Assembly (NCBI RefSeq): GCF_056712565.1
Contig: NZ_CM160072.1
Length of the DNA stretch: 64,000 nt
Strand: one strand, 5' to 3'
Numbering within the stretch: the first letter of the stretch is position 1; every line of letters starts with the position of its first letter. Below, piece by piece: positions 1 to 59,696 of the stretch. The position numbers and the translations under genes were made by a program. The notes below the pieces were generated by a model. It worked only from the letters and a program-made list of their open reading frames with translations, did not search any database and was not told the origin of the DNA.

Positions 1-747
1 GCCTTTCATGCATTACGTCTTGGCGGTACGCTGGTTTACTCGACCTGTACCTTAAACCGGGAAGAAAACGAAGCCGTTTGCCTGTGGCTGAAAGAGACTT
101 ACCACGACGCAGTAGAGTTTTTACCGCTTGGCGATCTCTTCCCTGGTGCAAATAAGGCGCTGACCGAAGACGGCTTTTTGCATGTTTTCCCACAAATTTA
201 CGACTGCGAAGGCTTCTTCGTTGCTCGTCTGCGTAAAACTCAGGCGATCCCCGTCTTACCCGCCCCAAAATACAAAGTGGGCAATTTCCCGTTTAGCCCG
301 GTGAAAGATCGCGAAGCCGGTCAAATTCGTCAGGCGGCTGCAAGTGTTGGCTTAAACTGGGATGAAAACCTGCGACTCTGGCAGCGTGACAAAGAACTGT
401 GGTTGTTCCCGGTAGGCATTGAAGCCCTGATCGGTAAAGTCCGATTTTCTCGCTTGGGGATTAAACTTGCCGAAACGCACAACAAAGGTTATCGCTGGCA
501 GCATGAAGCCGTTATTGCCCTTGCCTCCCCCGACAATGTGAACGCTTTTGAACTGACACCGCAGGAAGCGGAAGAGTGGTATCGCGGGCGCGATGTTTAC
601 CCGCAAGCCGCGCCAGTGGCGGATGATGTATTGGTTACTTTCCAGCATCAGCCGATTGGTTTAGCCAAACGGATTGGTTCACGACTGAAAAACAGCTACC
701 CGCGTGAACTGGTGCGCGACGGGAAACTTTTTACCGGTAACGCCTGA
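1..747 (+). CDS. rsmF: 16S rRNA m5C1407 methyltransferase RsmF (YebU), C-terminal part; 5' end outside window
   Basis: Frame 1 is open from base 1 to stop at 745-747; the 249 translated residues match RsmF as recalled. Confidence 0.85.
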
Positions 748-2129: not shown

Positions 2130-2419
2130 GTGTGTGTTATGGTTGACTATAAAGTCAGCGAAGGGAATGCTTCTGGCTTTTAACAGATAAAAAGAGACCG
2201 AACACGATTCCTGTATTCGGTCCAGGGAAATGGCTCTTGGGAGAGAGCCGTGCGCTAAAAGTTGGCATTAATGCAGGCTTAGTTGCCTTGCTCTTTAAGA
2301 ATAGATGACGACGCCAGGTTTTCCAGTTTGCGTGCAAAATGGTCAATAAAAAGCGTGGTGGTCATCAGCTTAAATGTTAAAAACCGCCCGTTCTGGTGAA
2401 AGAACTGAGGCGGTTTTTT
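2130..2419 (+). ncRNA. ryeA: RyeA (SraC) small RNA, antisense partner of SdsR; 5' end approximate
   Basis: Plus-strand transcript fully antisense to SdsR and ending at the hairpin plus T-run at 2384-2419. The 5' end is not resolved from sequence. Confidence 0.35.
2188..2291 (-). ncRNA. sdsR: SdsR (RyeB) sigma-S dependent small RNA
   Basis: Minus strand reads GCAAGGCAACUAAGCCUGCAUUAAUGCC...GUGUUCGGUCUCUUUUU, matching SdsR as recalled. Terminator hairpin at the 3' end; upstream -10 TATTCT with C at -13 (2298-2304). Confidence 0.85.
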
Positions 2420-33457: not shown

Positions 33458-33556
33458 GCCGGATGCGGCGTGAACGCCTTATCCGGCCTACAAAGTCTTG
33501 CTAATTCAATATATTGCAGGGGCTATGTAGGCCTGATAAGCATAGCGCATCAGGCA
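33458..33556. repeat. Pair of REP elements downstream of cmoB
   Basis: TGCCGGATGCGGCGTGAACGCCTTATCCGGCCTACA and GTAGGCCTGATAAGCATAGCGCATCAGGCA. Confidence 0.8.
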
Positions 33557-37469: not shown

Positions 37470-37502
37470 AAAAAAAGGCCCCTGTTGAAATTGCAGGGGC
37501 CT
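37470..37502 (-). terminator. Intrinsic terminator downstream of cutC
   Basis: Minus strand AGGCCCCTG...CAGGGGCCT followed by TTTTTTT. Confidence 0.8.
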
Positions 37503-37548
37503 GGTACGAGCAAGCATCATATTGGGCGACATGATGCAACGGTAAAAA

Positions 37549-38304
<756 letters not shown>

Positions 38305-49651: not shown

Positions 49652-49678
49652 TTATCGGCAAGGAGGGGGGAAACTTTA
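49652..49678 (-). promoter_or_regulatory. Sigma-28 (FliA) class 3 promoter of the tar-cheRBYZ operon
   Basis: Minus strand TAAAGTTT-N11-GCCGATAA, a perfect match to the sigma-28 consensus, about 30 bp upstream of the tar start. Confidence 0.88.
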
Positions 49679-53180: not shown

Positions 53181-53184
<4 letters not shown>

Positions 53185-54068
53185 GCTTCCTCGGTTGTCG
53201 TCTGTTGTTGCGGATTTTTCACCGCACGCACATGCTCTTCCAGCTCAATAAACGACGGACGTTCGCTGGAATAGAGCGTTTTGCGACCAAACTCAACGGC
53301 GATAGGCGGTGCGTAACCGTTCAGATTAGAAAGCAGAGTGACTTTGACGCACTGCATCATTTTGCTGGTTTCGGCGCTTTTCTGACGTAAAACACTCGCT
53401 AATGGGGAAATAAATCCGTAAGCCAATAAAATACCGAGGAAAGTCCCCACCATCGCATGAGCGATAAGCGCCCCCAGCTCGGCGGCAGGACGATCGGCTG
53501 AACCTAACGCGTGAACGACCCCCATTACAGCCGCAACAATACCAAACGCCGGAAGTGAGTCCCCGACCAGCGCCAGACTGTTCGCCGGGACTTCTGCCTC
53601 GCTTTCGTGCGTCTCAATCTCTTCATCCATCAGAGCTTCGATTTCGAAGGTGTTCATGTGACCGCTGATAATCAGGCGCAGATAATCGACGATAAATTCA
53701 AGCATGACGCTATCCGCAAGGATGCGTGGGTAGCTGGCGAAGATCTCGCTCTCACGGGGATTTTCAATATCGCGTTCCAGCGAAAACATCCCCATCTGCC
53801 GCGATTTCGCCATCAACCGATAAAGCAGAGCCAGCAGATCCATATACATTGCTTTGGTGTATTTGGAGCGACGAAACAGCAACGGCAGCGCCTTCAGCGT
53901 GCCTTTAATCGCTTTGCCATTATTGCCGACGATAAACGACCCAATCCCTGCACCGGCAATAATCACCAGTTCAGCGGGTTGATAGAGTGCTCCAAGGCTT
54001 CCACCGGTCATCAAATAACCGCCGAAAACTGTACCGAGAACAACCAGGTAACCTAATAAGATAAGCAC
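53181..54068 (-). CDS. motA: Flagellar motor stator protein MotA
   Basis: 295-aa membrane protein; stop overlaps the motB start by 4 nt. Confidence 0.95.
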
Positions 54069-54137
54069 GACATCATCCTTCCACTGTTGACCATGACAGG
54101 ATGTTCAGTCGTCAGGCGTTAACACGCGATAGGGGCA

Positions 54138-54231
54138 AAAGAAAGCAGCGGTACATCGTTACCGCTGCTGGAATGTTTCGCCACACCGTATCAGTTAAAC
54201 AGCCTGTACTCTCTGTTCATCCAGCAGTTGT
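54138..54231 (-). ncRNA. motR: Candidate MotR-like sRNA from the motA leader (ends approximate)
   Basis: Sigma-28 promoter at 54238-54264 inside flhC, followed about 90 nt downstream by hairpin GCAGCGGTA...TACCGCTGC plus TTTCTTTTG (54138-54169), upstream of the motA start. Confidence 0.45.
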
Positions 54232-54773
54232 GGGATAATATCGGCAGGATTCTGGGAAAGTTTACGTCTTTTTACTGCCCGGGATGGCGGCTGACATAAG
54301 CTGCAGGCAAAGCTGCCAACAGGCTGGTGAGCATGGGTAATAAAATTGCCGCCGCAGCAGTTGCAGCTGGAAAGTTGCAGTAATCCACTTTCAACAAACC
54401 GCACCAATGTCCAGGCACGGGTTAATGCCAGCAGCGGTCCTTCTTCTGCTTGCGGGCACTGTTCAAGGTATAAACGGTAGGCTTTGATCACCGCATCGAC
54501 GCCATTACACAAGCCAGTTTTCAGTAAAAACTGCCATGCATTACAGAACATCGAAGCATGAACGTTTTGTTCCCAGGTCATAAACCAGTCGGTTGAAAAT
54601 GGCAGCATGCCTTTCGGCGGTGGGCTTCCGCGCAGTTCTTTATAGAGTTTTATCAGACGTCCGCGACTTAACTGTGTTTCGCTTTCCAGCATCTGCAAAC
54701 GAGCGCCCAGGGTGATCAATTCCATTGCCAGCTGAATATCCCGCGCTTCCTGAACAATGCTTTTTTCACTCAT
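54195..54773 (-). CDS. flhC: Flagellar master regulator subunit FlhC
   Basis: 192 aa; C-terminal zinc-binding cysteines (CNCCGGNF...CSLC). Confidence 0.95.
54238..54264 (-). promoter_or_regulatory. Sigma-28 promoter embedded in the 3' end of flhC
   Basis: Minus strand TAAACTTT-N11-GCCGATAT, one mismatch in each element from the sigma-28 consensus. Confidence 0.7.
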
Positions 54774-54775
54774 GA

Positions 54776-55126
54776 TCAGGCCCTTTTCTTGCGCAGCGCT
54801 TCTTCAGGCTGATTAACATCATTCAGCAAGCGTGTTGAGAGCATGATGCCGGTATGAATTTGCTGGAGATCGTCAACGCGGGAATCTTGCGTCAACTGAG
54901 TAATCGTCTGGTGGCTGTCAAAACGGAAGTGACAAACCAGTTGATTGGTTTCTGCCAGCTTAACCATTTGCGGAAGAGTCAGTGCCGCTAACGTTGTCGC
55001 CATTTCTTCATTTATGCCGAGACGAAACATAGCGGACGCTTTGTCCTGAACAATCAGACGCTGTGCAAGTAGTAAATATGACAAGTTGATGTCATAAATG
55101 TGTTTCAGCAACTCGGAGGTATGCAT
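54776..55126 (-). CDS. flhD: Flagellar master regulator subunit FlhD
   Basis: Start taken at [18 protein letters not shown] (116 aa). Confidence 0.95.
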
Positions 55127-55384
55127 TATTCCCACCCAGAATAACCAACTTTATTTTTATGCGGTCTCACCGCACCCCGTGATGTCGCCGGGAAGCCCCG
55201 GTAAAAAATAATTAGCATTAGAATAGTTGCGATAAGCTGCAATAAGCAGACCCACCTTTTTGGTTTAATAAGTCCTTACAAATAGAAGGGGGTCTTTACA
55301 CTTATCTAAGATTTTTCCTAAATCGACGCAACTGTACTCGTCACTACACGCACATACAACGGAGGGGGGCTGCGATTTTCAATA

Positions 55385-55406
55385 ATGTGTGATGCAGATC
55401 ACACAA
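55385..55406. promoter_or_regulatory. CRP binding site in the flhDC regulatory region
   Basis: TGTGA-TGCAGA-TCACA, perfect CRP half-sites with 6-bp spacer, about 265 bp upstream of the flhD start. Confidence 0.8.
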
Positions 55407-55905
55407 AACGCTCAATTACTTAACATAAATGTATAAGTCATACTTTTGTTTTGGGTGTATTTCAATCTGTTAAAAAATTTTTCGCTACACTGGCAAGCAA
55501 AAATGAAACAGGAATAATCGAAATGGGATGTTGCGCACAGTTAAAATAACTCACCGTAAATAATCATCTGCTATAAATAATCGCTTTAATGCAATACCAG
55601 ATAAGCCATTTTTAAACAAACACTTACCGCACAACAAACTAATTAACTACAAAGAAAGGCAACAATCAACCCAATGTTAATAAAATGTTTTACATATATT
55701 AACCACTTGTTCAATATGGGAAATCAGTACATTATTTTCTTATAAATACAGTTGAAATCATATGATAACCAAGAGCAATTGATTAATTGTATTTACTAAT
55801 GACCAGACTAATATTTACCTGTTTAACTGAGTTGGGATTGCGTCGTTTCTCCATTAGGAGTAAAGCTTTAATGTCACCTGAAGTTCACAGAATAAGGAAC
55901 AGGTT

Positions 55906-56340: not shown

Positions 56341-59696
<3,356 letters not shown>

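Follow-up and report, generated by a model that had tools for sequence, protein, structure and literature searches.

Organization of the flhC-motA region

The flagellar genes flhD (55135-54776), flhC, motA, motB and cheA follow one another on the minus strand of the window, the 64,000-nucleotide stretch of DNA analysed here. A further gene, motR, begins inside flhC, towards its 3' end, and finishes in the 5' untranslated region (UTR) of motA on the same strand, a layout that matches that of Escherichia coli K-12. The window is E. coli DNA and is 100% identical to ATCC 11775 throughout the motR region. Of 5,426 complete E. coli genomes, 5,376 contain the 601 bases surrounding the site, and over this interval several ExPEC strains as well as ATCC 11775 are 100% identical to the window. 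With the exception of the K-12 reference, the matching RefSeq E. coli records examined carry annotations for flhC and motA only and leave motR unannotated. The features of the region are as follows.

54195-54773, minus strand: flhC coding sequence, 192 aa, stop codon TAA at 54197-54195; includes the promoter and 37 nt at the start of motR
54257-54264, minus strand: -35 element of the sigma-28 promoter, TAAACTTT, in flhC codons 170-173
54238-54245, minus strand: -10 element of the sigma-28 promoter, GCCGATAT, spanning flhC codons Ala177-Asp178-Ile179
54137-54231, minus strand: motR, encoding a predicted 95-nt, sigma-28-dependent, 5' UTR-derived sRNA that runs from +1, the A at 54231, to a 3' end at 54137
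54144-54169 (+63 to +88), minus strand: intrinsic terminator stem-loop AGCAGCGGTAACGATGTACCGCTGCT, 10 pairs of which 6 are G-C, 6-nt loop
54137-54143 (+89 to +95), minus strand: terminator U-tract UUCUUUU, with C at +91 (54141)
54069-54136, minus strand: remaining motA 5' UTR, 3' of the terminator; transcribed on read-through only, precedes the motA GTG
54068-53181, minus strand: motA, with its GTG start at 54068 and its end at 53181

A sigma-28 promoter within flhC

The promoter reads TAAACTTT-N11-GCCGATAT from 54264 to 54238 on the minus strand and lies entirely within flhC, at the coordinates where a first-pass annotation of the sequence had placed a sigma-28 motif. The same annotation put the motif about 40 bp before the flhC stop codon, and the distance from the end of the -10 element to the last base of the stop codon is 43 nt. 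The promoter differs from TAAAGTTT-N11-GCCGATAA by 2 mismatches. Measured against the sigma-28 class 3 consensus (TAAA(G/C)TTT, 11 nt and GCCGATAA, with a stringent -10), it agrees at 14 of 16 positions and has the correct spacing.

Short consensus matches arise randomly, and a scan of 1.7 kb for terminator-like sites returned 3 where 1.6 would be expected. On these grounds the motifs resembling a promoter and a terminator might be chance matches in and after a coding sequence, a reading that is already refuted. A search of the whole window at 3 or fewer mismatches gave 5 sigma-28 matches where 0.55 were expected, and none of 100 shuffled sequences reached 5; three of the five (flhC/motA, tar and otsA) are published FliA ChIP-seq sites. 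The window promoter is letter-for-letter the 28-nt FliA ChIP-seq motif '(flhC)motAB-cheAW' (TAAACTTTCCCAGAATCCTGCCGATATT; FAT score 101) of Fitzgerald et al. 2014, and identity with a ChIP-seq-verified site speaks against a chance match. The promoter in flhC has been known for decades as the motA promoter, and Fitzgerald and coworkers (2017/2018) reported that it constrains the evolution of FlhC. There is no difference between the promoter of the window and that class 3 FliA promoter of motAB-cheAW (Fitzgerald et al. 2014; 2017/2018). Judged by its sequence, the promoter in this strain is a FliA promoter.

Two other sites in the window are listed in the table of Fitzgerald et al. 2014. A perfect sigma-28 consensus at 49678-49652 is the tar promoter, and an intragenic sigma-28 site in otsA lies at 57470-57496.

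Identity with the sRNA MotR

Melamed and coworkers (2023, eLife 12:RP87151, PMC10578931) described MotR, an sRNA that derives from motA's 5' UTR. In K-12 it is absent from a fliA deletion strain, is seen as a band of about 95 nt and co-immunoprecipitates with Hfq, and its RIL-seq targets have been published; larger bands were ascribed to read-through of the MotR terminator into motAB-cheAW. The start site, the fliA dependence, the band, the Hfq binding, the targets and the phenotypes have been shown by others in K-12 (PMC10578931), and such direct experimental characterisation also speaks against chance motifs. In the K-12 reference, motR is annotated as ncRNA b4828 at 1977208-1977302 on the minus strand, 95 nt long and overlapping the last 37 nt of flhC.

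The oligonucleotide table of Melamed et al. 2023 (PMC10578931) supplied the primers and the T7 template with which the window was compared. The published 5'-phosphorylated cloning primer for +1, SM001 (ACAACTGCTGGATGAACAGAGAGTAC), maps to 54231-54206 with 0 mismatches, which sets +1 at 54231 and motR at 54231-54137. SM002, the published reverse primer used for cloning, likewise matches with 0 mismatches, at 54065-54084. The published T7 template of MotR and 54231-54137 are identical at 91 of 95 bases, as are the K-12 sequence and the window. Comparison of 54138-54231 with published MotR had been suggested in the first-pass annotation, and the result bears out the identity proposed there. The window and K-12 share the locus, the sigma-28 promoter, the sequence at +1, the 95-nt length and the terminator stem, and they differ at 4 of 95 bases, of which two are in the seed, one is in the loop and one is in the U-tract.

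No Term-seq 3'-end data for MotR were found in the literature search, and none of motA, flhC and motR is listed in the text or supplementary data of Adams et al. 2021; the 3' end is therefore taken from the K-12 annotation, the northern band of about 95 nt and the terminator prediction. Rfam 15 has no MotR family, and it gave no match at E<=1 over 53500-55800 or at the gathering score over the whole window.

The region is almost certainly the E. coli motR locus, working as it does in K-12. FliA (sigma-28) RNA polymerase would use a promoter lying within about the last 60 nt of flhC and initiate at the A at 54231. Most transcripts would then end at the intrinsic terminator, with its stem at 54169-54144 and its U-tract reaching 54137, and give the 95-nt Hfq-binding sRNA MotR, and the fraction that reads through would be the motAB-cheAW mRNA. 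In K-12, MotR together with Hfq pairs through a seed at about +46-54 inside the coding sequences of rpsJ and fliC, and this pairing raises the expression of S10 and flagellin and increases the number of flagella. By homology with K-12, a fliA-dependent RNA of about 95 nt whose 5' end is the A of ACAACUGC would be expected in this strain, where the RNA should also be expressed and bind Hfq. A sigma-28 promoter and leader terminator that yield a MotR-like sRNA of roughly 90 nt, with read-through giving the motA mRNA, had been proposed from the sequence; the proposal matches the published K-12 locus (Melamed et al. 2023, PMC10578931), of which this is the ortholog, with a predicted RNA of 95 nt.

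motR is an already published and characterised gene and is not a new feature. What is added here to the published work is the exact coordinates in this strain, the allele differences in the seed and the U-tract, the derived state of the K-12 seed and the anti-terminator hypothesis.

The terminator and its probable action on flhDC transcripts

A scan for terminators found AGCAGCGGTAACGATGTACCGCTGCT followed by TTCTTTTG, the sole terminator-like site between the flhC stop codon and motA. It has the GC-rich stem and short loop of an intrinsic terminator, and 6 of the next 7 nt are U, the run being interrupted by one C. The stem is identical to that of K-12 and has an energy of -16.7 kcal/mol. The hairpin dominates the predicted fold of the 96-nt transcript and is the only helix in its centroid structure. 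The first-pass annotation had located a GC-rich hairpin with a T-rich tail about 70 bp upstream of motA, which agrees with a U-tail that ends 69 nt before the GTG. Its placement of the hairpin about 90 nt downstream fits the 3' end of the U-tail, about 94 nt downstream, but not the stem, which already starts 62 nt after the start site (+63).

The hairpin most likely also terminates flhDC transcripts. Fitzgerald and coworkers (2014, Table 2) reported 107 normalised units for flhC and 1 for motAB-cheAW in a fliA deletion, and this drop, together with the lack of any other terminator between the two genes, points to the motR hairpin. Termination of flhDC transcripts at this site had been suggested from the sequence, and the published levels are indirectly consistent with it. 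The MotR and FliA literature examined contained no statement on whether the hairpin ends flhDC transcripts. A bidirectional terminator was considered and rejected; the plus strand has GGAATGTTT after the stem instead of a U-tract.

Conservation across Enterobacterales

Eighty flhC loci from different Enterobacterales species were surveyed. The -35 element is TAAACTTT in 76 of them and TAAACTTA, in which the last T is replaced by A, in the remaining 4. The core of the -10 element, GCCGATA, is invariant (80/80), while the 11-nt spacer varies freely. In 79 of the 80 loci precisely 43 nt separate the end of the -10 element from that of the flhC stop codon; only an Enterobacter cloacae strain departs from this, having lost 1 nt of the spacer, a deletion that also puts flhC out of frame.

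Synonymous sites were scanned by third-position entropy in 70 indel-free flhC sequences. Five promoter codons are conserved in amino acid (R170, K171, L172, A177 and D178), and their third positions are invariant in all 70 species. The background is much more variable; 139 comparable codons have a mean third-position entropy of 1.16 bits, and only 8 of them are invariant, 7 of which adjoin the promoter. The survey thus reproduces the extreme conservation of the motA promoter and its published constraint on FlhC, at Ala177-Asp178. Beyond that published constraint, the invariance of synonymous sites over the 70 species extends downstream to flhC codons 182-187 (CAA CTG CTG GAT GAA CAG, equivalent to MotR +2 to +19) and likewise to V167/K168, upstream of the -35 element. 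Such invariance over 70 species would not be expected of a chance match.

Of 79 evaluable loci, 70 have the terminator hairpin, AGCAGCGG...CCGCUGCU followed by a U-run; these are the loci of Enterobacteriaceae and Erwiniaceae. It begins 61-65 nt from the predicted +1 in nearly all carriers, giving predicted RNAs of 92-97 nt. In Pectobacterium, Brenneria and Serratia the leaders carry other structures in place of the motR hairpin. In an alignment of 68 sequences the outer 7 pairs of the stem are invariant, and the inner 3 pairs are kept by compensatory changes in 4, 4 and 14 sequences, so that the hairpin, too, is maintained in a way that argues against a chance origin.

Seed and U-tract differences between the window and K-12

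The motR allele of the window carries four substitutions relative to K-12, at +49, +54, +77 and +91.

+49, 54183, minus strand: A in K-12, U in the window; in the seed duplex with rpsJ
+54, 54178, minus strand: C in K-12, A in the window; in the seed duplex with rpsJ
+77, 54155, minus strand: C in K-12, U in the window; in the terminator loop
+91, 54141, minus strand: U in K-12, C in the window; in the U-tract
+46 to +54, 54178-54186, minus strand: seed region, GUGUGGCGA in the window and GUGAGGCGC in K-12

Among 5,357 matching E. coli genomes the exact allele of the window was found in 114, compared with 2,897 for the K-12 allele, and alleles intermediate between the two exist. The validated duplex, as set by the M1 and rpsJ-M1 oligonucleotides, joins K-12 MotR +46-54 (GUGAGGCGC) to rpsJ GCGCUUCAC. 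The window seed retains 7 of the 9 bases of this duplex and differs at +49 and +54. Duplex energies were calculated locally at the validated site, with every allele paired against the K-12 rpsJ sequence.

K-12 MotR (A49/C54): -22.4 kcal/mol
U49/C54: -18.7 kcal/mol
Window (U49/A54): -15.1 kcal/mol
Loss-of-function M1 mutant: -10.3 kcal/mol

When whole MotR was paired with the rpsJ fragment in RNAduplex, the resulting duplexes had long loops and no physical meaning, and they were discarded. Opposite +49, rpsJ has the second base of a Phe codon, where no silent change is possible.

The U-tract is also altered. The tail after the stem is UUUCUUUU in the window and U8 in K-12, and the C at +91 is unique to the window among 68 aligned sequences, K-12 and all 67 others carrying U. 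A T-tail score, which is only rough, is 3.25 for the window and 4.71 for K-12. Both intrinsic termination and Hfq binding depend on 3' U-tails, and an interruption of the tail should weaken both. Termination and Hfq binding would thus be expected to be somewhat weaker in this lineage owing to the C at +91.

These differences allow the reading that the short RNA of this strain is a mere by-product, the site serving as promoter of motAB-cheAW and terminator of flhDC with no role in trans. The change of 2 of 9 validated rpsJ duplex bases, which costs the predicted duplex about 7 kcal/mol, and a U-tract interruption found in no other aligned sequence are in its favour, as is the long history of the promoter simply as that of motA. 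It is nonetheless improbable. GUGUGG (around +46-51, non-coding) is the majority or consensus state in Enterobacteriaceae and is also the state of the window. Since U49 and A54 both match the cross-species consensus, it is the K-12 seed (A49, C54) that is the derived allele, and the window retains a conserved non-coding motif. The predicted window duplex also exceeds that of the M1 null in stability by about 5 kcal/mol, and the strain keeps the hairpin with most of its U-tail. According to Melamed and coworkers, moreover, MotR was bound to Hfq in the RIL-seq data of EPEC and Salmonella (PMC10578931). The validated rpsJ pairing accordingly rests on a derived K-12 seed, whereas this strain and most other Enterobacteriaceae carry GUGUGG.

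The substitution at +77 changes ACG in K-12 to AUG in the hairpin loop of the window and opens a frame of 14 codons. A leader peptide was rejected, as the frame has no Shine-Dalgarno sequence and is not conserved.

A predicted anti-terminator helix

The 5' end of MotR is perfectly complementary to a segment that reaches into the 5' arm of the terminator, and the two could form an alternative helix.

54220-54227 (MotR +5 to +12), minus strand: predicted anti-terminator 5' strand CUGCUGGA, in flhC codons 183-185
54165-54172 (MotR +60 to +67), minus strand: predicted anti-terminator 3' strand UCCAGCAG, overlapping the terminator stem by its first 5 nt

In folds of successive transcript prefixes, the helix is predicted to form once +67 has been made, and its pair probability is about 1.0 in the ensemble of +1..78 for both the K-12 and the window alleles. 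A standard folding tool returned the same prefix structure (z = -2.15). In the full-length RNA the terminator is favoured over the helix by just 3.2-3.8 kcal/mol. The predicted helix and the terminator thus exclude each other, and the helix could form before the terminator, as an alternative helix should. Within a limited literature search, no earlier proposal of the helix between +5-12 and +60-67 was found.

These folds raise the possibility, put forward tentatively, that the leader is primarily a cis-acting attenuator or structural switch, and its terminator not just a fixed leaky one; the helix would block the 5' arm of the terminator and so let untranslated sigma-28 transcripts continue into motAB-cheAW at an appreciable rate. 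On the flhDC mRNA, a ribosome at flhC codons 182-185, or at the stop codon, where it would occupy the prospective loop, would prevent the anti-terminator from forming, and termination would be efficient. The MotR sRNA would be the terminated product of the switch. Such a mechanism would be compatible with the identification of the region as motR and would add to it. The energies fit this proposal, with a helix that is nearly certain in the +1..78 ensemble and a terminator that is only slightly better. The transcript levels fit as well; transcripts from flhDC essentially never reach motA (107 vs 1) and those from the sigma-28 promoter do (302), and a ribosome that prevents the helix while completing flhC would be in keeping with near-complete insulation of motA. 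Melamed and coworkers prefer a different explanation of read-through, by S10-NusB (PMC10578931).

The mutants bear on the switch in different ways. MotR*, in which +6-8 is changed from TGC to GAG, was described only as a MotR variant of higher abundance that was found fortuitously (PMC10578931). The change lies within the 5' strand and is predicted to abolish the helix (P about 0; -12.8 vs -26.0 kcal/mol). Under the attenuator model the loss of the helix would lead to more termination and hence to a higher yield of MotR, but the greater abundance of MotR* could also reflect stability alone. MotR-M1, in turn, is predicted by folding to make helix and terminator nearly isoenergetic, yet its levels were reported to be those of the wild type (PMC10578931), which does not favour the model.

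Comparison between species is similarly divided. The synonymous invariance of codons 182-187 coincides with the 5' strand, with a single other invariant flhC codon lying away from the promoter, and Serratia loci that lack the motR hairpin show synonymous changes in these codons. U60, C61 and C62, which are non-coding and lie outside the terminator stem, are invariant or nearly so in 68 sequences. Sequestration of the terminator arm is predicted in all 68 species sequences, at 0.99 compared with 0.41-0.46 in shuffles. However, some form of sequestration of the arm is seen with about 45% of shuffled 5' ends too, and the 68 sequences are not independent of one another. Both strands of the helix are invariant in these sequences, so that covariation is impossible to see. 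No comparable anti-terminator pairing was found in the leaders of Pectobacterium, Brenneria and Serratia, and Pectobacterium and Brenneria retain the 5' sequence despite having a different hairpin. The invariant stretch may have other causes, as CTG, CAG, GAT and GAA are common codons and an initially transcribed region may be constrained by promoter escape, RNA stability or target pairing. On balance the switch is possible but rather unlikely.

If true, the switch would explain both the hyper-abundance of MotR* and the invariant synonymous sites in codons 182-187, and it would show how one hairpin can insulate motA from flhDC while the motA promoter still works. The C in the U-tract of this strain would then shift the balance further toward motA mRNA.

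The trp leader is a translation-sensitive transcription attenuator. The motR leader resembles it in the prediction of an anti-terminator and a terminator helix that exclude each other, and in that a ribosome stopped just upstream would favour the terminator. Unlike the trp leader, the motR leader has no dedicated leader peptide, the translated segment being the end of flhC, and just one of its two transcript classes is translated.

Relation to other flagellar sRNAs

MotR connects late flagellar transcription with the synthesis of ribosomal protein S10 and flagellin, and in this case a reading of the sequence alone recovered a published regulatory RNA. Automated pipelines are likely to miss motR, as it has no Rfam model and is annotated in K-12 alone among the records examined. 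UhpU, FliX and FlgO are the sister sRNAs of MotR, likewise sigma-28 dependent and derived from UTRs. All three come from 3' UTRs, FliX and FlgO by processing, whereas MotR alone among the four arises by premature termination in a 5' UTR (PMC10578931).

Sequence variation in MotR and conservation of its promoter

Relative to K-12, MotR in this E. coli strain varies at positions 54141 (+91), 54155 (+77), 54178 (+54), and 54183 (+49), numbered from the transcription start at 54231. The C at 54141 breaks the U-tract of the terminator, the sole such case in 68 aligned species/strain sequences, while 54183 and 54178 fall in the seed and distinguish it from that of K-12. The aligned sequences give U49 and A54 as the ancestral consensus at the two seed positions. 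The exact allele of the window is found in 114 complete E. coli genomes whereas the K-12 allele is found in 2,897. As a separate observation on the E. coli genome collection, the flhC-motA junction has approximately 5,378 matches, of which two lie on plasmid-labelled records.

Among 70 species, synonymous sites at the third positions of flhC codons 182-187 (54213-54230) are invariant, as are those of codons V167 and K168 (54266-54271), directly upstream of the -35 element. Synonymous invariance in flhC reaches past the promoter elements and into the first ~19 transcribed nucleotides. Invariant third positions outside the promoter elements suggest a constraint at the RNA or DNA level that would exceed the known promoter "duon" in flhC.

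The sigma-28 promoter within flhC is retained in Serratia, Pectobacterium, and Brenneria (survey loci L071, L073-L079, and L081), where the motA leaders are longer (173-258 nt), contain other hairpins, and lack the AGCAGCGG terminator. A MotR equivalent in these genera, if any, would be a different RNA. At L069, the flhC locus of Enterobacter cloacae DSM 26481 (~2019-2112), a 1-nt deletion leaves a promoter spacer of 10 nt rather than 11, which both changes the sigma-28 spacing and causes a frameshift at the end of flhC. The strain may be defective in motility, or the deletion may be an error of sequencing.

The flhDC upstream region and other features of the window

MG1655 carries IS1H upstream of flhD (K-12 1978503-1979270). 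The element is missing from the window at ~55424-55431, and the alignment runs unbroken, with an overlap of 8 bp, over the place of the insertion, so that the flhDC regulatory region is uninterrupted in this strain. The antisense RNA AsflhD (b4839), annotated in K-12, overlaps the 5' end of flhD; its homologous region, placed by coordinate offset alone, is ~55105-55324 (plus strand).

MotR has no Rfam match within the window because Rfam 15 does not include a MotR model. Small RNA matches and other sigma-28 motifs are as follows.

Rfam matches and sigma-28 motifs in the window
2185-2329, plus/minus, SraC/RyeA with SdsR/RyeB (Rfam)
33492-33534, plus, ES036 (Rfam)
37470-37777, minus, MicL (Rfam)
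49652-49678, minus, perfect sigma-28 consensus TAAAGTTT-N11-GCCGATAA, identical to the published tar-tap-cheRBYZ FliA site
57470-57496, plus, sigma-28-like motif TGAAATTGCACCAGATCGAGCCGATAA within otsA, identical to a K-12 FliA ChIP-seq site

The otsA site in K-12 is intragenic and weak (FAT score of 2) and has no associated expression change (Fitzgerald et al. 2014). A match to Rfam family C0465 (49668-49745, plus strand) overlaps the tar-tap-cheRBYZ sigma-28 promoter on the opposite strand.
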